From an uncultured Clostridia bacterium (GTDB lineage Bacteria > Bacillota > Clostridia > Christensenellales > UBA1242): 64,000 bases of DNA. The notes beneath the pieces are model-generated. The model saw nothing but the letters and a program-made list of their open reading frames with translations. It searched no databases and was not told where the DNA came from. The DNA lies in NCBI GenBank assembly GCA_944362545.1, contig CALVTJ010000004.1, forward strand, positions 68,494-132,493. The letters are read 5' to 3'. Both the position numbers and the translations under genes were made by a program. The number at the start of each line of letters is the position of its first letter. Position 1 is the stretch's first letter. Positions 6,469 to 25,160 of the stretch are shown here, one piece after another.

Positions 6469-7701
6469 TCACACTACTTTGACCTTGACAAAACTCTTTT
6501 TCCCTTTTTTGAGCAAGCCATCATTTGCCTCATCTGCTGACACCTGCGTGTCAAATTTTGCCACTTTTTCGCCTTTAAATGTGATTGCCCCGCCTTGTAT
6601 GAGCCTTCTTGCTTCGCTCTTTGACTGTGATAGTCCGCATCTAAACACAAGGTCACAAATCATCATTGGAAATTCACTTTTATTCACTTTCACAATCGGA
6701 GCATCATCTCCGCCAAGAGCAAACAAGTTTTCGCTCATCTTTTGCGCCAAAACAGCATCTTGCTCTCCGCGGACAAACTTTGTCACTTCAAATGAAAGCA
6801 CCTTTTTTGCACCAACAATGTCTTCTTTGACCATTTTTCTAACTTCATCCATTGGCACATCGGTGAAAAGTGCAAACATCATCTCCACGCACGCATCCGG
6901 CGTTTGATAAACTCCTTGATAAAAATCATAAGCCGAAATTTTGTCTTTGTCTATCCAAATCGCGCCCTTTTCAGTCTTGCCCATTTTTTTGCCATCTGGT
7001 GTCATCAAAAGCGGATTTGTTGCACCAACAAGTTGAACATCTGTGCCCTTTTGAAAGTTGAGTTTGCGTTGAAGTTCCACTCCTGCAACAATGTTACCCC
7101 ATTGGTCCTGACCGCCATATTGCAAAGTACAACCATAAGCCTTGTTAAGATGAACAAAATCATATGCCTGCATGAGCATATATCCCATTTCAAAGAAAGT
7201 CAACCCACCCTCTTTCAATCTGCCGGCATAGATTTCGTTTGTTATCATCTTGTTGACATTAAAATGCACACCAATGTCACGCATGAAATCAACATAATCA
7301 TAACCCTTAAACCAATCAGCATTGTTGACAATGATTGCTGGATTTTCGCCATCAAAATCAAGAAAAACCTTCAATGTGTTTTTGATTTTTTTGATGTTTT
7401 CATCCACCTGCTCTTTGGTGAGCATTTTGCGCATCTCCTGCTTGCCACTCGGGTCTCCAATGCAAGCGGTTGCCCCGCCCATCAAAATGATAACCTTGTG
7501 CCCTGCCTTTTGAAATCTTCTCAAAATGCAATATGGCACACAGTGTCCAATGTGCAAACTGTCAGCGGTCGGATCTGTGCCTTCATAAAGCGTGACAGGT
7601 TTTCCGCTTTCAAGCATTTTTTTCAAACCTTCTTCATCTGTGCATTGATACAAGAGTCCGCGCTCTTTCAGTGTTCTAAAAAGACTCGTGTCAACTTTCA
7701 T
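6469..7701 (-). CDS. tyrS: Tyrosyl-tRNA synthetase
   Basis: HIGH motif (LHIGHCV), KMSKS variant (KMGKT) and a C-terminal S4-like domain. Start trimmed to ATG 7701 (MKVDTSLF) after GGAGAG; the longer ORF-track start runs into the leader. Confidence 0.93.
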   Translation of the reverse strand: MKVDTSLFRTLKERGLLYQCTDEEGLKKMLESGKPVTLYEGTDPTADSLHIGHCVPYCILRRFQKAGHKVIILMGGATACIGDPSGKQEMRKMLTKEQVDENIKKIKNTLKVFLDFDGENPAIIVNNADWFKGYDYVDFMRDIGVHFNVNKMITNEIYAGRLKEGGLTFFEMGYMLMQAYDFVHLNKAYGCTLQYGGQDQWGNIVAGVELQRKLNFQKGTDVQLVGATNPLLMTPDGKKMGKTEKGAIWIDKDKISAYDFYQGVYQTPDACVEMMFALFTDVPMDEVRKMVKEDIVGAKKVLSFEVTKFVRGEQDAVLAQKMSENLFALGGDDAPIVKVNKSEFPMMICDLVFRCGLSQSKSEARRLIQGGAITFKGEKVAKFDTQVSADEANDGLLKKGKKSFVKVKVV

Positions 7702-7946
7702 TTTTCTCTCCTTTTCATAACAAAAAACACGCCACCCAAAATTTTGGGACGAAGCGTGCGTTCGTGGTACCAACCCAATTCGGTTTAATCAAACATTTAA
7801 ACCCTGTTTATGCCCGTTCGTGGACCTGACGCAAAACTTGAAACAAGTGTAATTCAATCAGCCAATTCAAAGATTTTTCACCAACCAATCTCTCTCTGCA
7901 TGAAAATGAACAAACCTACTTCTTCTCATTCCACCATTTTGATTAT
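7702..7946 (-). promoter_or_regulatory. T-box riboswitch leader (tyrosine specifier candidate) with terminator/antiterminator
   Basis: On the minus strand: AGAGA box (about 7891-7900); candidate UAC specifier at 7849-7851; T-box core AATTGGGTTGGTACCACGAACGC (7757-7780); then terminator CACGC..CCCAAAATTTTGGG..GCGTG plus T-run (about 7722-7760), directly upstream of tyrS. Confidence 0.85.
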
Positions 7947-7952
7947 GCAAAG

Positions 7953-7981
7953 ATTTTAACATCCATTGCACTTTTTGTCAA
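7953..7981 (-). promoter_or_regulatory. Sigma-A promoter of the tyrS T-box leader
   Basis: Minus strand: TTGACA (7976-7981), 17-nt spacer, TAAAAT (7953-7958). Confidence 0.6.
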
Positions 7982-8142
7982 ACAAAAATTTACTTTTTAA
8001 AAAGAAAGAAAAAAGTTTTTCAATTATATGCTTCGAACATTTGTTTTTCCGTTTTCAATTGAAGTGGATAATATTTAAATATAACAAATTTTTTCTTTGT
8101 TTGTAAATTTTTTTGCTGTGACAAAAAGCATAGCAAAATCAT

Positions 8143-8172
8143 TTGAAAAAATTGAATAGTTTTTGCTATAAT
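8143..8172 (+). promoter_or_regulatory. Candidate promoter of the NifU-like/GGGtGRT operon
   Basis: TTGAAA (8143-8148), 18-nt spacer ending in TG, TATAAT (8167-8172), about 20 nt before the ATG at 8191. Confidence 0.5.
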
Positions 8173-8190
8173 TTTTTTGAAGGAGAGATT

Positions 8191-8880
8191 ATGAAAAAAG
8201 AAAGCAAATTAAACTGCTGTGTAAAAAATATGCATGGCTATGGGCCTTCGCCAATTCCACAAGAAGGCAAGTGGGACCAAGTGAAAGAAATCACTCAAAT
8301 TTCTGGTTTTTCTCATGGTTGTGGCACTTGCGCCCCACAACAAGGTGCGTGCAAACTCACGCTCAATGTAAAAAATGGAATTATCAAAGAGGCATTGGTC
8401 GAAACAATCGGCTGTTCGGGCATGACTCATTCTGCCGCCATGGCTGGAGAAATTTTGGTTGGGAAGACTCTGCTTGAAGCATTAAATACCGACCTTGTGT
8501 GTGATGCCATCAACGATGCCATGAAAAATGTGTTTGAACAACTCGTCTATGGTCGAAGTCAATCGGCATTTTCGCTTGGCGGATTGGAAGTTGGTGCAAG
8601 CCTTGAAGATTTGGGCAAATACAAAACAAGTCAAGTCGGCACCATTGTTTCCACCGAAAAAGAAGGTGTCAAATATCTCAACCTGACCGAAGGCTACATC
8701 ACCAAAATGGCACTTGATGAACATGATGAAGTGATTGGTTATGAATATGTCAACCTTGGGCTTCTTCTCAAAAATCTCAATGATGAAAGTTTGACAAAAT
8801 CACAGGCAATTGAAAAGTCGACAAAGCATTATGGACGCTTTGATGAAGCAAAGAAATTTATCAATCCAAGAGGAGAGTAA
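8191..8880 (+). CDS. NifU/IscU N-terminal-like scaffold-domain protein with a C-terminal extension
   Basis: GCGTCAPQQGACKLTLNVKNGIIKEALVETIGCSGMTHSAAMAGEILVGKTLLEA resembles the three-Cys NifU_N/IscU core. Start set to ATG 8191 after GGAGAG. Confidence 0.65.
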   Translation: MKKESKLNCCVKNMHGYGPSPIPQEGKWDQVKEITQISGFSHGCGTCAPQQGACKLTLNVKNGIIKEALVETIGCSGMTHSAAMAGEILVGKTLLEALNTDLVCDAINDAMKNVFEQLVYGRSQSAFSLGGLEVGASLEDLGKYKTSQVGTIVSTEKEGVKYLNLTEGYITKMALDEHDEVIGYEYVNLGLLLKNLNDESLTKSQAIEKSTKHYGRFDEAKKFINPRGE

Positions 8881-8882
8881 AC

Positions 8883-9881
8883 ATGGAAGAAACAAAAAAA
8901 TATGCCTATCTTTCACAGGCACTCAAAGACAACGGGCTCAAAGACATCCAACAAGCAAAAGATTTTTGCAAAAGTTATGGCATTGATGTGGAAAAGATTG
9001 TGCGCGATATCCAACCTATCTGCTTTGACAATGCTGTTGATGCCTATGCACTCGGGACTTCTATTGCCCTGAAATCAAACTGCAAAAACGCCAGCGAATA
9101 TGCTGAAAAAATCGGCGAAGGACTGCAAGCATTTTGTGTGAAAGGGTCGGTGGCTGATGAACGCAAAATTGGACTCGGTCACGGCAGACTTGCCGGTAGA
9201 CTTTTGGATGAGCACACCAAATGTTTCTGCTTTTTGGCGGGACATGAAAGTTTTGCTGCTGCAGAAGGAGCGATGGGCATTGCAAACACGGCAAACAAAA
9301 TCAGAAAAACTCCGCTCAAAATCATTCTGAACGGACTTGGAAAAGATGCTGCTTACATCATCGCCCGCGTGAACGGCTTCACATATGTCAACACCTACTT
9401 TGACCATAAGGAACAAAAACTCAACATCCTTGGCGAAATTGCTTTTGGCAGTGGCGAACGCGGAAAAGTGAAAATTTATGGGGCTTACGATGTCTCCGAA
9501 GGTGTGGAAATAATGAAATATGAGAGTGTGGATGTTTCCATAACAGGCAATTCCACAAACCCAACCCGCTTCCAGCACCCTGTGGCTGGCACTTACAAAA
9601 AGTGGTGCGTGGACAATGACAAAAAGTATTTTTCTGTCGCTTCCGGTGGTGGAACAGGCAGAACACTTCACCCAGACAACATGCGCTGTGGCCCTGCAAG
9701 TTATGGCATGACAGACACTATGGGCAGAATGCACTGTGATGCACAGTTTGCGGGCAGTTCTTCAGTGCCTGCTCATGTGGCAATGATGGGCTTTATTGGC
9801 ATGGGCAACAACCCGATGGTTGGTGCAACCGTTTCACTTGCTGTTGCAGTTTCTCTCGCCAAAAAGAAAAAGAAGAAATAG
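8883..9881 (+). CDS. GGGtGRT-family protein (unknown function)
   Basis: 332 aa carrying the family-name motif exactly (SVASGGGTGRTLHPDN). Starts 2 nt after the upstream gene and ends in a KKKKKK tail. Confidence 0.75.
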   Translation: MEETKKYAYLSQALKDNGLKDIQQAKDFCKSYGIDVEKIVRDIQPICFDNAVDAYALGTSIALKSNCKNASEYAEKIGEGLQAFCVKGSVADERKIGLGHGRLAGRLLDEHTKCFCFLAGHESFAAAEGAMGIANTANKIRKTPLKIILNGLGKDAAYIIARVNGFTYVNTYFDHKEQKLNILGEIAFGSGERGKVKIYGAYDVSEGVEIMKYESVDVSITGNSTNPTRFQHPVAGTYKKWCVDNDKKYFSVASGGGTGRTLHPDNMRCGPASYGMTDTMGRMHCDAQFAGSSSVPAHVAMMGFIGMGNNPMVGATVSLAVAVSLAKKKKKK

Positions 9882-11221: not shown

Positions 11222-12067
11222 TTAGTTTTTCTCTTCCTGCTCATAAATCTCATTAAAGTCAAAGGTTTTGCCGTGATATTTCAGCCCAACCATCGTATCA
11301 ACGTTGACATTGTGTATACTCTTGAAAATATGATTTTCCACTTCTGGTATCTTCTTTTTCAACTCTTTAACAAGTTTTTTCATCTCCAACCTTGCCGATG
11401 GGGAAATTTCTTCGTTTGAAAGATTCTCCGTAAACCTGCACGCACATTGCAAAAATGTCAAATTATTATATTTCTTCCATGCCAAAATATCATCTTCGCT
11501 CACGCAATAAAGTGGTCGGATAAGTTCCATTCCGGCAAAGTTTGTCGAGCGAAGTTTTGGTGGCATTGCCTGAATTTGCGCGCCATAGAGCATGCCCATG
11601 AGGGTGGTTTCAATCACATCGTTGAAGTGATGAGCAAGCGCAATTTTGTTGCAACCGTGTTTTTGTGCTTCGCTGTAAAGATATCCTCTTCGCATCCTTG
11701 CACAAAGATAGCATGGCGATTTTTCAATGTTTGCCACGCTGTCAAAAATTTGAGTTTCAAAGATGTCAAGTGGAATTTCCAACAATTTGGCATTGTCTTC
11801 AATCTGTTTTCGATTTGCTCTGTTATAACCAGGGTCCATGCACAAAAAGATTAAATCAAAATTCACATCACTTATTCTTTTGAGCATTTGCATAAGTTTT
11901 GCAAGCAACATAGAATCCTTTCCGCCCGACACACAAACAGCAATCTTGTCGCCTTCCTGCACAAGATTATATCTTTTGAGTGCCAAAATAAATTTCGTCC
12001 AAATACCTTTGCGAAATCTTTTGTTTATGCTTCTTTCAATCTCTTGTGCTCTTGTCAATTCTTTCAT
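11222..12067 (-). CDS. PP-loop ATPase, tRNA 2-thiocytidine (TtcA)-like
   Basis: PP-loop VCVSGGKDSMLL and CxxC pairs (CYLCARMRRG, LQCACRF). Start trimmed to ATG 12067 (MKELTRAQE). Confidence 0.75.
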   Translation of the reverse strand: MKELTRAQEIERSINKRFRKGIWTKFILALKRYNLVQEGDKIAVCVSGGKDSMLLAKLMQMLKRISDVNFDLIFLCMDPGYNRANRKQIEDNAKLLEIPLDIFETQIFDSVANIEKSPCYLCARMRRGYLYSEAQKHGCNKIALAHHFNDVIETTLMGMLYGAQIQAMPPKLRSTNFAGMELIRPLYCVSEDDILAWKKYNNLTFLQCACRFTENLSNEEISPSARLEMKKLVKELKKKIPEVENHIFKSIHNVNVDTMVGLKYHGKTFDFNEIYEQEEKN

Positions 12068-16501: not shown

Positions 16502-18484
16502 CTAATCCCCATTCTTTTTTCTTGTCTTCCTGTTCTTTGGTTTCTTGTCCTTTACATTTTCTTCTTTGATCGTGTTCTTATCACAGTTGTCTTCGGTGTC
16601 TATTGAGGTTTTCTCGTCTTTTTTCCTTCTAATAATAACAACAGCAACAGTCACAGCAACTGCAACTATAATCACGCTTCCAATGCTCCCCAAAACAACA
16701 TACAATAATGTATTGTCTTGTTGTGGACTTGTAAGTTCTTCCTCTGTATAAGTCAAAATCGAATTTGCATTTGCGGAACTTAATTTGTTTTGAACACTGT
16801 CCCCTGTTTTATAATGATGTGGCAAATCAATCTCAACGCCTCCAGCGATCTGCTTTGGAGTTTGAATTGTGGCAAAATTGCATATTTCTCCAAACATATT
16901 GGTTATGTCGGTATCCGCACCAATGACAAGCCCTGTTAAATTTAATGTGCCAACTGGGACAAAATCTTCCACTTGTTGTGAATATTCTTCGTCAGATATC
17001 AAACTAATACTCCACGAGTTTTCGCTGTTTAACGACTCGGCAAAATCAAGTGCAGCAACATAAATAGTTTGAATGGCTTCACTTTGAGACATCTGTTCAC
17101 TTTCCATAACCGACTGCACATAAGCGTCAAAATCTTGTCCATAATAAATCTCATATGCTTCTCTGACTGTATATGGCAACCCTCTAGATAAATCTAATTG
17201 ATATAATCTTGAATATTGAACCAAACTGTCTAAATCACCAAATACACCCAAATCACACAGTGTATAATGTTCCTTTAAATCTTCGGAATATGCAAATGGT
17301 AAAACAGACTTTTCAAAACTTGTATTCATCCAATCTTCAATCAACTTGCCATGAGTATAATATGTGCTAAACATATAAGACATATCTGTCACCAAACTCG
17401 TATCAAGTCCGGTCAAATCAATATTATGCAAGTTTGGACAATTAAAGAATAAGTTGCTCAAATCAGTTGGTTTCATGCCATCAAAGAAATTGCCAAAATT
17501 TATCTTCTCTAAATTTATGCAATTTTCAAATGCATGAGATAGATCTTTTATATATTCTTGTCCTTTAATGTTTTTCAATGTAATGGTCTTTGCAGGGACT
17601 CCGGAAAACATATAACTGTAATTTGACGAATCTTTTAAATGAGAATTTACAAGACTAGACAGGTCTTGATTTTCAATAATATTATGTATGATTGAAAAAT
17701 CAAAACCGTCAACAATCAATTCGTCAAATGCTGGCATAACAGTTTCTTTCTCATATTGATTCATAACCATCTGATTATACAATAGATTATAAGCAACATC
17801 TTCTCCATTAAATTTTGCTGTGCAACTGCAAATGTTAACTGGAGTATATTCATAAGTATTTGAATTCTCATCATAAGACGCTAGTTCATATGTCCAGCAA
17901 GCCAAGCATCCAACATTTGCATCAATTTCCTCCTGCGTTATTGGATGATCTAAGTAAAGATAAGATGGTGTACTTTGTGTGCACATACAACCAATATCAG
18001 GATCCCATCCACAAGTGCAACTTTCATTAGAACAATCTTCCCCCAATAAAAGACCATTGATAAAAGGAGAAAAAATGCGAGAACAGTCCAATATCGCAAC
18101 ATAACCATACAAGGGGCCTTGATTTGTATAATACATATTAACAGCAGCATCATTGCCATATGCCACGCCTTTTGTTGTGTGAATAACAATGTCAGCCTTG
18201 CCCGCATCGCCTTCAACAATGTAAATTTCTTCATTTATTGCATCGCTAACTTCTGCATCATCTCCTAGAAAATCTGCAACGACTCCTTGTTGCATTATAT
18301 TTTTGCCTTCTATATAACTGCTTACATCACTTGCATAAATTATTTTGCCAATTTGTCCATCATCATATTGTTGCAAAGGAAAAAGACTACCTACACATCC
18401 TGTCAATAAGCAGAAAATCATAAGCAACAACATCGCCAAAACACTCACAGAAAAATATTTTAAAACACTTTTTGATCTTCCCAT
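16502..18484 (-). CDS. BspA/DUF285-type leucine-rich-repeat surface lipoprotein
   Basis: Lipobox LLTGC after a signal peptide (start trimmed to ATG 18484 after GGAG). DUF285-like repeats (SYMFSG.., LSHAFENCINLEKINF.., LSNLFFNCPNLHNIDLTGLDTSLVTDMSYMFS). C-terminal TM helix plus basic tail. Confidence 0.75.
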   Translation of the reverse strand: MGRSKSVLKYFSVSVLAMLLLMIFCLLTGCVGSLFPLQQYDDGQIGKIIYASDVSSYIEGKNIMQQGVVADFLGDDAEVSDAINEEIYIVEGDAGKADIVIHTTKGVAYGNDAAVNMYYTNQGPLYGYVAILDCSRIFSPFINGLLLGEDCSNESCTCGWDPDIGCMCTQSTPSYLYLDHPITQEEIDANVGCLACWTYELASYDENSNTYEYTPVNICSCTAKFNGEDVAYNLLYNQMVMNQYEKETVMPAFDELIVDGFDFSIIHNIIENQDLSSLVNSHLKDSSNYSYMFSGVPAKTITLKNIKGQEYIKDLSHAFENCINLEKINFGNFFDGMKPTDLSNLFFNCPNLHNIDLTGLDTSLVTDMSYMFSTYYTHGKLIEDWMNTSFEKSVLPFAYSEDLKEHYTLCDLGVFGDLDSLVQYSRLYQLDLSRGLPYTVREAYEIYYGQDFDAYVQSVMESEQMSQSEAIQTIYVAALDFAESLNSENSWSISLISDEEYSQQVEDFVPVGTLNLTGLVIGADTDITNMFGEICNFATIQTPKQIAGGVEIDLPHHYKTGDSVQNKLSSANANSILTYTEEELTSPQQDNTLLYVVLGSIGSVIIVAVAVTVAVVIIRRKKDEKTSIDTEDNCDKNTIKEENVKDKKPKNRKTRKKNGD

Positions 18485-18581
18485 ATTATCTCCTGTTTTC
18501 AGGATAACAGCGGGGGAGGGAGTTGTCAACTAAATTTTGCATTTACATAAACAAAAATCTGATTTTATATTTTTAGAACAT

Positions 18582-23218: not shown

Positions 23219-23356
23219 ATTGTATTTTATTATGTAAAACTACTTTATATCACAAAAATAAAACAGTTGGCACAAATCATTGAAAACGCAAAATTTCAAT
23301 GTTAATCTCTTTTTGTTTTTTAAAAACTTTCAAATAAATGGAGAATGTGTTAAAAT

Positions 23357-23929
23357 ATGAGTGACTCTGATGACCTGTTTAGAAAAATTTTAGATATCTT
23401 TTTAAATAAATCAAGTGGCCTAACAGCAAAGTTTTTGCAATACCAACACCGTGGCAGTTGTATAAATCCATGCAAAGATTGTCCAGCGAGAAACAAAAGG
23501 ATTTATGAAAATGGCAATGAAGTGAAACTTCCTGCACATCCACATTGTGATTGCTATTACACAAATGTCGAAACAAAAGCAGTTGGAACAATCTCAACAC
23601 GGCAACCTGCCCCTGATGTCTGGCTTAAAGCTTTTGGAGAACTTCCTGATTATTACATAACAAAAGAAGAAGCCGAGCAGTTGTATGGTTGGACCAGAGG
23701 AAAAGATTTGTCTAAACTCGCCCCAGGAAAAATGATTGGCGGAGATATTTATTATAACAATAAACATATTCTACCAGAAAAGGAAGGAAGGATTTGGTAT
23801 GAGTGTGACATTGATTACACAAATGGGAAAAAAAGAAATCCACTAAGACTATATTATTCAAATGATGGGCTTATGTTCTATTCACCAAATCATTTGGATG
23901 GCAATGTCACTGTATATTTGGTTGAGTAA
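23357..23929 (+). CDS. Barnase-family ribonuclease toxin fused to a MuF (SPP1 gp7) C-terminal zinc fragment
   Basis: The C-terminal 110 aa align to barnase with all catalytic equivalents: ITK (K27), WYECDIDY (E73), KKRN / LRLYYS (R83/R87), SPNH (H102). The N-terminus carries CKDCPARN..LPAHPHCDC, typical of the Phage_Mu_F C-terminus. No signal peptide. Confidence 0.85.
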   Translation: MSDSDDLFRKILDIFLNKSSGLTAKFLQYQHRGSCINPCKDCPARNKRIYENGNEVKLPAHPHCDCYYTNVETKAVGTISTRQPAPDVWLKAFGELPDYYITKEEAEQLYGWTRGKDLSKLAPGKMIGGDIYYNNKHILPEKEGRIWYECDIDYTNGKKRNPLRLYYSNDGLMFYSPNHLDGNVTVYLVE

Positions 23930-23941
23930 GGGAGAAAAAAG

Positions 23942-24265
23942 ATGATTGAAAGAGAAATTGTTTTTGACAGAAATAACTATAAAAGTTATAAAGATTTTTA
24001 TTCTCAAATTTACAAGGATTTGGATGGAAAGGATAATCCAGATTTTGAAGAATATGATGATTTCCACTATAATGCAGATTTGTTAGATGAATTTTTATGG
24101 TATTGTCATAATGATAATGTCAAATATATTTTTGTGGGTTTTGATCAGGCAGAAATTGCTTTAGAAAAAACATATGATGATTACGAATTTAATATCGTTA
24201 TTAAAATTTTTAAAAGATTTGTAAACAAATATCCAAACAACGAACTTGAATTTAAAGATAAATAA
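23942..24265 (+). CDS. Barstar-like immunity protein
   Basis: 107 aa, starts 12 nt after the toxin stop. YKDFYSQIYKDL..EYDDFHYNADLLDEFLWY..YIFVGFDQ follows the barstar pattern (..YGENLDALWDCL..). Confidence 0.75.
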   Translation: MIEREIVFDRNNYKSYKDFYSQIYKDLDGKDNPDFEEYDDFHYNADLLDEFLWYCHNDNVKYIFVGFDQAEIALEKTYDDYEFNIVIKIFKRFVNKYPNNELEFKDK

Positions 24266-24268
24266 AAG

Positions 24269-24297
24269 CATATCAATTGATGTGTTTTTTATTTTTT
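24269..24297 (+). terminator. Intrinsic terminator after the barstar-like gene
   Basis: CATATCA/TGATGTG hairpin (one G-U pair) followed by TTTTTTATTTTTT. Confidence 0.6.
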
Positions 24298-24310: not shown

Positions 24311-24339
24311 TTGACAGTGCAAAAATGCAGTGTTATAAT
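24311..24339 (+). promoter_or_regulatory. Consensus sigma-A promoter of the ankyrin gene
   Basis: TTGACA (24311-24316), 17-nt spacer, TATAAT (24334-24339). Confidence 0.7.
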
Positions 24340-24359
24340 CTAATCAATTGGAGAAAAAA

Positions 24360-25160
24360 ATGCGTATTACACAAGAAAAACATGACCAAATCAATTTGAA
24401 ATTTATGTCTGCTTGCCATGATGGAAACATTAAACAAGTGAAAAAACTTTTGAAAAAAGGTGCAGATATCAATCAAGTTGACAATTTGAAGAACACCGCA
24501 CTTCACTATGCAGTGTTATATCAAGACATTGAACTAGCAATCATTTTGATTATGAATGGCGCGGATGTAAACAAACAAAACTTAAAGGGTAAAACCCCTC
24601 TGCATATTGCAGTTCAAAATGAAGACTCCATGCTTTCTTCAATTTTGCTAGACTCTGGCGCCGATATGGAAATCAGAGATATCTATGATGCAAGTCCGGC
24701 TTTACTTGTTTTAGATGCCGACATGATTAATGGTGATTTGTTGATAATGTTTTTGGAACATAATGTAAATATAAACACAAAAAACTCAAATGGCGAAACA
24801 ATCTTACACAGATTTGCCAAATCATCGTTTACCAAAGGACAACAAATCAAAAGTCTTGTTGAACTTGGTGCAGATGTAAATGTTTTCGATAATGATGGCT
24901 ACACCCCATTGCACTTCGCCACAAAAATGGATAATTTTGAAGTAGTCAAGGCATTGGTGGAATGCAAAGCCGATGTCAATGCTGTCAACAATCATCTTCA
25001 AAACGCACTTTTCTACGCGTTGCAAAATGAAAACAAACAACTTGCCGGCTATTTGTTGGAACATGGAGCAAAAATAAATGTCAAAAGACAGCCAACATAC
25101 AAAACAAGTGAAAAATCTTCAGAAATAACAAAAAATAATGAAAATTGTCTTGCAAAATAA
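24360..25160 (+). CDS. Ankyrin-repeat protein
   Basis: At least 6 ANK repeats (NTALHYAVLYQDIELAIILIMNGADVN, GKTPLHIAVQNEDSMLSSILLDSGADM, GYTPLHFATKMDNFEVVKALVECKADVN). ATG 24360 follows GGAG. Confidence 0.85.
   Translation: MRITQEKHDQINLKFMSACHDGNIKQVKKLLKKGADINQVDNLKNTALHYAVLYQDIELAIILIMNGADVNKQNLKGKTPLHIAVQNEDSMLSSILLDSGADMEIRDIYDASPALLVLDADMINGDLLIMFLEHNVNINTKNSNGETILHRFAKSSFTKGQQIKSLVELGADVNVFDNDGYTPLHFATKMDNFEVVKALVECKADVNAVNNHLQNALFYALQNENKQLAGYLLEHGAKINVKRQPTYKTSEKSSEITKNNENCLAK

Follow-up and report, generated by a model that had tools for sequence, protein, structure and literature searches.

The window analysed here, a 64-kb stretch of contig CALVTJ010000004.1 (assembly GCA_944362545.1) from an uncultured Clostridia bacterium, carries two adjacent genes that form a putative toxin–immunity pair. 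The first encodes a predicted ribonuclease (RNase) toxin, in which a barnase-family domain follows a short zinc-motif module related to the phage MuF (SPP1 gp7) proteins, hereafter mini-MuF; the second encodes a small acidic immunity protein of the barstar type. This two-gene pair belongs to a widespread, conserved family of gut Clostridia that was previously undescribed as such. A preliminary description of the locus, read from the sequence alone, had recognised the main parts of the pair and had left its nature between a decayed MuF toxin, kept as an addiction or abortive-infection-like pair, and a minimal delivery tag.

The toxin and its inhibitor

The barnase domain is complete, its catalytic set is intact, and it is predicted to be an active RNase. 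Barnase chains from the Protein Data Bank (PDB) match amino acids (aa) 89–180 of the toxin with E-values of ~1e-21 to 5e-21, and the Pfam PF00545 match reaches 32.9 bits (cut-off 24). The full complement of catalytic equivalents claimed in the preliminary description was borne out: toxin residues K103, E149, R160, R164, and H179 align with barnase K27, E73, R83, R87, and H102. An AlphaFold2 (AF2) model of the toxin, built with 54 relatives in the alignment (mean predicted local confidence, pLDDT, 91; predicted template-modelling score, pTM, 0.84), superimposes on barnase (1bsd and related entries) with a root-mean-square deviation of 1.3 Å, a template-modelling (TM) score of 0.86–0.87, 42–44% identity, and a Foldseek E of 4e-11. 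Among 120 relatives (P0001–P0120), the catalytic general base, E149 in the window, is glutamate in 102, histidine in 9, and tyrosine in 7; the other catalytic residues stay conserved in the relatives with histidine or tyrosine, which may be altered-mechanism or inactive variants.

The N-terminal region carries the motif CKDCPARN..LPAHPHCDCYY, which had been assigned to MuF and to the first ~90 aa of the protein. The motif and its MuF origin stand; its extent does not, as the homologous stretch is confined to aa 23–74. Seven residues (Q28, H31, C39, C42, H61, C64, and C66) are invariant among 26 diverse N-terminal domains, and five of them (C39, C42, H61, C64, and C66) fall on the C, C, H, C, and C that are invariant in genuine PF04233 proteins. 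These five, together with H31 and C35, are the putative zinc ligands.

Standard searches did not reveal this relationship. Pfam PF04233 (Phage_Mu_F) gave no match at E ≤ 1 to the toxin or to the 26 diverse relatives, and NCBIfam none at E ≤ 10 to the N-terminal domain of the window protein or of the same 26; sequence and profile searches of the PDB with this domain found nothing real, and a word-indexed homologue search with its profile returned fragments alone. The absence of a MuF profile match, which the preliminary description had named as the result that would speak against its assignment, is thus literally the case for Pfam and NCBIfam, but is overturned by several more sensitive comparisons. 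PHROG 1657 ('head morphogenesis') was matched by 12 of the 26 domains (best E 8e-5), and several other head-morphogenesis PHROGs were matched too. A profile of the domain, run against 1.84 billion representative proteins, recovered full-length MuF/gp7-type proteins (226–626 aa) at whole-library E-values of 1e-4 to 1e-5, with the matches falling exactly on the C-terminal Cys/His motif. Five of these MuF-like matches were checked with Pfam: all score above threshold for PF04233, and the profile match falls on the end of that Pfam model. Profile–profile alignment (hhalign) of the domain against 12 MuF-like proteins gave 98.3% (E 2e-14) and placed aa 23–74 on residues 214–265 of a 291-aa MuF protein; the 12 proteins were picked via the profile search, and the PF04233 membership, checked for five, is independent of that selection. 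Finally, the best local Foldseek matches of the toxin model among the predicted viral structures of BFVD were annotated 'minor capsid protein' and 'phage head morphogenesis domain' (47–68 columns, probability 0.85–0.99), with E-values that are weak because the matched stretch is so short. By these sequence comparisons, aa 23–74 is a homologue of the C-terminal end of MuF/SPP1 gp7, covering the last ~50 of 112 PF04233 positions and nothing more, and is a conserved module, predicted to bind zinc, rather than debris.

The downstream gene had been called barstar-like on the strength of its position and an acidic helix. Its spacing from the toxin gene can be read directly, and the helix NADLLDEFLWY is present in a protein that is strongly acidic overall (net charge -11, isoelectric point (pI) 4.5). 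The helix reads D46-L-L-D-E50, with E50 and F51 invariant in 53 homologues; the register of D46..E50 against barstar D35/D39 differs between two alignments. Direct matches were lacking here too: Pfam and NCBIfam returned nothing usable, with no PF01337 match for the window protein and only one of the 53 relatives reaching E 0.077 against that model, and neither the immunity protein nor 58 homologues had a Pfam or PDB sequence match, a PDB profile search being likewise empty. The AF2 model (pLDDT 96) has the barstar fold of three parallel strands and four helices in the element order b-a-a-b-a-a-b, and its best full-length fold match in the PDB is barstar itself (1x1x_D; probability 0.95, TM 0.60/0.71), at a Foldseek E of only 0.18. 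Alignment of the family profile with a single barstar sequence by hhalign was not significant. More distant mini-MuF–barnase loci have a canonical barstar (..PDYYG.NLDALWDCLT..) in the downstream position, and all 24 of those sampled match PF01337; against a profile of these 24 genuine barstars from distant mini-MuF–barnase loci, the immunity family aligned over its whole length (89 columns) at 96.3% and E 1.9e-9. Of the profile tests proposed in the preliminary description, PF00545 matched outright, whereas PF04233 and PF01337 did not and the homology to both emerged only from the more sensitive comparisons. The barstar fold spans the whole length of the protein, which has no helix-turn-helix, ribbon-helix-helix, or AbrB domain. 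On profile and model evidence the immunity protein is a divergent barstar, which would inhibit its cognate RNase. In one relative (L095, 10001–11627) three immunity-type genes come after the toxin gene and the third of them is a canonical PF01337 barstar, so that divergent and canonical barstars coexist in one array.

The resemblance to barnase–barstar of Bacillus amyloliquefaciens (PF00545/PF01337) extends to the RNase fold, catalytic residues, percent identity, and toxin-then-inhibitor order of the first gene product, and to the acidic alpha/beta character, secondary-structure order, and acidic helix (aligned to the D35–D39 helix, in a register that varies with the alignment) of the second. 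The window pair differs in lacking a signal peptide and in its extra N-terminal zinc module, and its inhibitor differs in being too divergent for Pfam Barstar and in having DxxxE rather than DxxxD. A secreted scavenging RNase like that of Bacillus, with the barstar shielding the producer before export, would agree with the 44% identity to barnase and with the shared partner logic. It fits the data poorly and we consider it highly improbable: the N-terminus, MSDSDDLFRKILDIFLNKSSG, reads as an acidic, amphipathic stretch that lacks a hydrophobic core, and so not as a signal peptide, as had been stated earlier; it leads into a cytoplasmic-type zinc module, and plasmid and Bacillus barnases match aa 70–181 only, without that module. 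AF2 places a helix at aa 3–19 of this N-terminus (pLDDT 66–74), where the mean top-residue frequency is 0.31.

Transcription signals around the pair are modest (Table 1). A consensus scan of the upstream intergenic region found two weak sigma-70-like matches (9/12 each) and a GGAG 12 nucleotides (nt) before the toxin ATG. The terminator proposed after the immunity gene exists as a hairpin with a T-run, although it is weak and AT-rich (folding energy -11 kcal/mol, z -2.6) and was not called by a terminator scan, whose G+C criterion it failed. Farther on, at 24311–24339, the same kind of consensus scan found a perfect TTGACA-17-TATAAT promoter with TG, driving the downstream ankyrin gene. With this separate promoter and the hairpin and T-run before it, the toxin–immunity pair looks like its own transcription unit.

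Table 1. Features of the toxin–immunity locus (window coordinates)
Feature	Coordinates	Strand	Description
Upstream intergenic region	23267–23356	+	possible promoter and ribosome-binding site (RBS); consensus scan, weak evidence
Toxin gene	23357–23929	+	190 aa; N-terminal helix, mini-MuF zinc module, barnase RNase domain
Helix, aa 1–22	23357–23422	+	predicted amphipathic, sequence poorly conserved, without signal-peptide character
Mini-MuF module, aa 23–74	23423–23578	+	homology to last ~50 positions of the MuF/SPP1 gp7 domain (PF04233)
Barnase-family RNase domain, aa 78–186	23588–23914	+	PDB barnase, PF00545, and Foldseek matches
Spacer with RBS of immunity gene	23930–23941	+	12 nt; GGGAG 7 nt before ATG
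Immunity gene	23942–24265	+	107 aa; divergent barstar-family inhibitor, acidic helix D46..E50
Weak hairpin (24269–24284) and T-run to 24297	24269–24297	+	likely end of two-gene transcript

The immediate neighbours are those named in the preliminary description: upstream, on the opposite strand, a cwlD-like Amidase_3 protein (E 7e-47), and downstream an ankyrin-repeat protein. The ankyrin-repeat gene (24311–25160) matches the PADLOC candidate-defence model PDC-M72A (E 3e-33) and is missing from the corresponding islet in two relatives, L005 and L010. Proteins with ankyrin repeats are among the immunity proteins known from polymorphic toxin systems, and the gene may be an orphan immunity or defence gene. 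Two further proteins of the window were noted: a 'GGGtGRT' family protein at 8883–9881 (PF14057, E 3e-173), unrelated to the pair and 14 kb upstream of it, and a 675-aa protein at 16502–18529, adjoining tilS, with a weak match to DUF285 ('Mycoplasma') repeats and conserved in identical metagenome contigs.

Relatives and genomic setting

Homologues of the toxin form more than 236 protein clusters at 90% identity, a count that is a lower bound, with a median length of 189.5 aa and a uniform two-domain layout. Relatives are encoded in 468 stretches (one genome per species), of which the best 79 were surveyed as loci; almost all of these 79 are from metagenome-assembled genomes (MAGs) of gut or rumen Clostridia (Christensenellales, 'Onthoplasma', Oscillospiraceae, and others), and one is from a MAG labelled Bacteroidaceae. 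Surveyed by open reading frames (ORFs) and hidden Markov models, dozens of related loci have the immunity gene 10–15 nt downstream of the toxin, and the loci carry one to four tandem immunity genes as well as duplicated toxin–immunity pairs. Degraded toxin copies also occur beside retained immunity genes: in one locus (L013) the zinc knuckle is gone, and in another (L077) the toxin is truncated at its 5' end. Three apparent cassettes of an orphan barnase fragment with immunity genes (L017, L053, and L021) were discounted as toxins cut by locus or contig edges. When neighbouring ORFs were clustered over 81 loci, toxin and immunity protein were the only families in common, leaving no gene family that links the pair to a secretion or delivery apparatus.

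The pair lies outside any prophage, as first described: the window is core chromosome (priA, tyrS, tilS, spoIIE, dnaE, murB, secY, rplB), and its 64 kb contain no phage debris. Every annotated context of the pair in relatives is core chromosome as well. In three related lineages the pair occupies the same variable islet, bounded by an amidase/spoIIE/tilS block on one side and a hydrolase/transketolase block on the other; in a fourth (L092, 10001–14851) two mini-MuF–barnase/immunity pairs flank tilS, beside spoIIE and the amidase, and in other lineages the pair stands beside spoIVA or smpB. Between the window and two syntenic relatives, toxin and immunity protein are 58–73% identical and the flanking core genes 59–83%; the identity of the pair is within the range of its flanks, which argues for long residence at the site. 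A link to sporulation, hinted at by the neighbours spoIIE, cwlD-like amidase, and spoIVA, was dropped, as only 7–8 of the 81 loci have those neighbours and do so via plain synteny. The pair itself matched no PADLOC defence model.

One viral contig in IMG/VR, and only one, encodes a mini-MuF–barnase protein (IMGVR_UViG_3300032167_005571; L012, 8553–9098). The gene for this 181-aa member is not in the portal/MuF position but at the end of the contig, where it follows structural or lysis genes (capsid-like, amidase, and others); the sequence stops short of any immunity gene.

These observations bear on the suggestion that the pair is a decayed remnant of a prophage MuF–barnase toxin, kept only through addiction. 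The module being the C-terminal end of a MuF domain, truncation of a MuF toxin is the likely evolutionary origin; that one phage contig still carries a short member, and that some loci stand beside smpB, a classical island site, agrees with a remnant. As an account of what the pair is today, however, decay fits poorly and has very little probability in our view. The family keeps a uniform length and invariant metal ligands across hundreds of independent lineages, its divergence matches that of the flanking core genes at the syntenic site, phage debris is absent from the 64 kb, and truly decayed copies in relatives look different, having lost the zinc knuckle or the 5' end. This part of the preliminary description is not supported: the family is conserved, widespread, and long resident where it is found.

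The N-terminal module on other toxins

Mini-MuF is not confined to barnase. Profile searching with the N-terminal module gave 87 hits: 13 join mini-MuF to barnase; in about 30 it heads other C-terminal regions, among them a DUF6883-like cluster of 12 members and several smaller clusters; 16 are MuF-like and have it at least 90 aa from the N-terminus; and the remainder are short proteins or fragments. One N-terminal module thus occurs on different C-terminal toxin domains, in the profile hits and in the syntenic islet of one relative (L005, 7334..7849). No PDB relative was found for the DUF6883-like toxin P0239.

The L005 islet is itself a small collection of such genes. Its second short toxin, at 7334..7849, has a mini-MuF-like N-terminus (HCVTC...HPNCH) and a DUF6883-like C-terminus, and is followed by a putative immunity gene of 129 aa (toxin and immunity gene together, 7334–8226), with an orphan 104-aa paralogue further downstream (11557–11871). 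The islet also holds two barstar-type immunity genes and, at 8868–9629, a 97-aa ORF rich in W, H, G, and Y (..WSHGGGYHDWPHDHY..) and, behind it, a 151-aa ORF that contains two CxxC pairs; these last two ORFs may form a further pair of toxin tip and immunity gene.

Among the members with barnase, variation is greatest in the N-terminal module and not in the toxin tip. Across the family, identities in the module (aa 23–74) and in the barnase domain (aa 78–186) are only weakly coupled (r 0.29); one relative, for example, is 79% identical in barnase and 34% in the module. Three subtypes of the module were distinguished, one with an extra Cys-rich insertion (GPC...CCAPFI.C.HAS). Such weak coupling suggests domain shuffling or a fast-evolving partner interface, and is as expected if the module tracks a variable partner.

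An alternative is that the zinc module is an accessory domain of the enzyme, serving nucleic-acid or substrate binding, folding, or autoinhibition with no part in trafficking, and that the genes form a plain barnase–barstar couple engaged in RNA turnover, stress, or release on lysis. The two domains are directly joined without a linker, the junction (GTIS..PD..LK) is highly conserved, and AF2 packs them as one compact body (pTM 0.84). SPP1 gp7 binds DNA (PMC10083569), in one study a toxin was less toxic when fused to full-length MuF, and simple barnase–barstar pairs were considered widespread by Zhang et al. (2012). A basic, nucleic-acid-binding character was looked for in the module and is unsupported by its charge: the module is not basic, with a mean net charge of about 0 and a pI of about 7. 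It also heads unrelated C-terminal domains, pointing to a generic rather than a barnase-specific role, and the immunity arrays and orphan immunity genes imply exposure to the toxins of other cells. We regard a purely accessory role as improbable.

Proposed function and relation to known systems

The safe core of any explanation is an RNase toxin that would be neutralised by a co-translated inhibitor, toxicity and neutralisation alike being predicted from the sequences and by analogy with known pairs. Beyond that core, we interpret the pair as a self-contained toxin–immunity module of the polymorphic-toxin type, in which mini-MuF would serve as a loading or adaptor tag for delivery, and we put the probability of this interpretation at roughly one half. 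The proposed sequence of events is as follows: the 190-aa protein would be a cytotoxic barnase-family endoribonuclease, held inactive in the producer cell in a tight 1:1 complex with the divergent barstar made from the same transcript. Mini-MuF would most likely act as the adaptor between the toxin and a carrier encoded at another genomic locus, on which the toxin would be loaded; the obvious candidate is a phage or a phage-like particle, through its portal or capsid, and the RNase would then reach neighbours lacking the matching barstar.

Several features argue for a toxin that reaches other cells: the toxin-first gene order, the arrays and orphans of immunity genes, the degraded toxin copies, and the N-terminal module shared between toxins. 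The IMG/VR phage contig with a member beside structural and lysis genes, and the published listing of MuF as a trafficking mode of Tox-Barnase (Zhang et al. 2012), also count in favour of the polymorphic-toxin interpretation. The carrier is a matter of inference. The portal directs SPP1 gp7 to the procapsid (PMC6316719) and, as noted, gp7 binds DNA; mini-MuF being the only candidate adaptor, loading on a carrier supplied in trans would follow.

A number of observations weigh on the other side. Only one immunity gene, and no orphan cassette, is present in the window itself. The comparison of related genomes for prophage remnants found no export apparatus, portal, terminase, or other phage gene near the pair, either in the window or in about ten distinct Pfam-annotated contexts; no copy was found in 50,697 GenBank phages, and PLSDB plasmids gave barnase-domain matches only, without the module. 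The toxin keeps just ~50 of the 112 PF04233 positions, and the compact body predicted by AF2 would be equally compatible with a regulatory or substrate-binding role of the module. The literature found neither maps the part of MuF that binds the portal nor demonstrates packaging, even for full-length MuF toxins, and no solved MuF structure was found.

The strongest competitor is an intracellular module of the toxin–antitoxin (TA) or abortive-infection (Abi) kind, in which mini-MuF would sense the portal or procapsid (or DNA) of an infecting phage and free or activate the RNase, so that the infected cell dies. Like type II TA and Abi modules, the pair is a small, autonomous two-gene chromosomal unit of an RNase toxin and a protein inhibitor, without signal peptide or linked export genes, scattered beside housekeeping genes and long resident at its site. 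The natural partner of MuF/gp7 is indeed the portal (PMC6316719), and diversification of the N-terminal module uncoupled from barnase would fit an arms race with phage proteins. The pair departs from such modules in placing the toxin first, in an antidote without a DNA-binding domain, and in matching no PADLOC defence model; up to four tandem immunity genes, and immunity genes beside degraded toxins, are typical of inter-cell toxins and not of TA pairs. Barstar binding is classically very tight, and proteolysis is not known to relieve it. We therefore judge the TA/Abi explanation rather unlikely. Both it and the minimal delivery tag are interpretations, and of the two the delivery tag fits better because mini-MuF heads other toxin domains and relatives show immunity arrays.

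A bolder possibility, which we advance as speculative, is that mini-MuF is a stand-alone 'capsid-boarding pass' docking on the portal of any phage or phage-like particle the cell produces, or, as a mirror image, a decoy that senses the portal of an invader. If the former were true, a chromosomal, prophage-independent toxin would be shipped into neighbours, amounting to piracy of phage capsids for interbacterial warfare; if the latter, the module would sense the portal of an invading phage and unleash the RNase. Under either portal reading, a zinc knuckle of ~50 residues would be the portal-recognition determinant of the whole MuF family, and the diversification of the N-terminal module independently of the barnase domain would be explained.

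Returning to the polymorphic-toxin interpretation, the family can be set beside two recognised classes. With the MuF phage toxins it shares a MuF-derived N-terminus, a C-terminal toxin, a small immunity ORF directly downstream, and a bias to Firmicutes; the ~110-aa barnase domain is a C-terminal extension of the type used by Jamet et al. (≥ 100 aa), followed after 12 nt by the 107-aa ORF. MuF toxins, in contrast, have a MuF region of ~250–300 aa where the window toxin has the last ~50 of 112 PF04233 positions, and the window toxin has no head-morphogenesis module, portal neighbour, or prophage and is absent from GenBank phages. With the polymorphic toxin systems of Zhang et al. (2012) it shares one N-terminal module on different toxins, the toxin–immunity order, and, in relatives, tandem and orphan immunity genes and degraded toxins; it differs in that its proteins are very short and lack stalk and repeats, and in that no secretion system can be recognised.

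The domain combination itself is not new: Zhang et al. (2012; PMC3482391) list MuF in a table among the trafficking modes of Tox-Barnase, with Imm-Barstar as the immunity protein. Jamet et al. (2017; PMC5576092) define the MuF toxins by a full-length MuF protein encoded in the head module of a prophage and leave barnase unmentioned, and apart from Zhang et al. no paper in the literature searched combines barnase, barstar, and MuF. What is new is a mini-MuF module that is truncated yet conserved, has long resided on the chromosome away from phage genes, heads several types of toxin, and is mosaic, together with the unrecognised barstar subfamily that accompanies it.

The mechanism of the MuF-fused toxins, a recognised class, turns on two points: whether they ride in capsids and which part of MuF does the targeting. 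The family described here presents MuF stripped to a zinc module of ~50 residues and long kept on chromosomal toxins far from phage genes. With it come a large subfamily of barstars and an N-terminal module of toxins that current Pfam and NCBIfam models miss, and with both parts missed, hundreds of pairs in gut Clostridia carry no annotation beyond 'ribonuclease' or 'hypothetical'. For the MuF family as a whole, mini-MuF is a minimal, tractable construct for learning what the conserved end of MuF binds.

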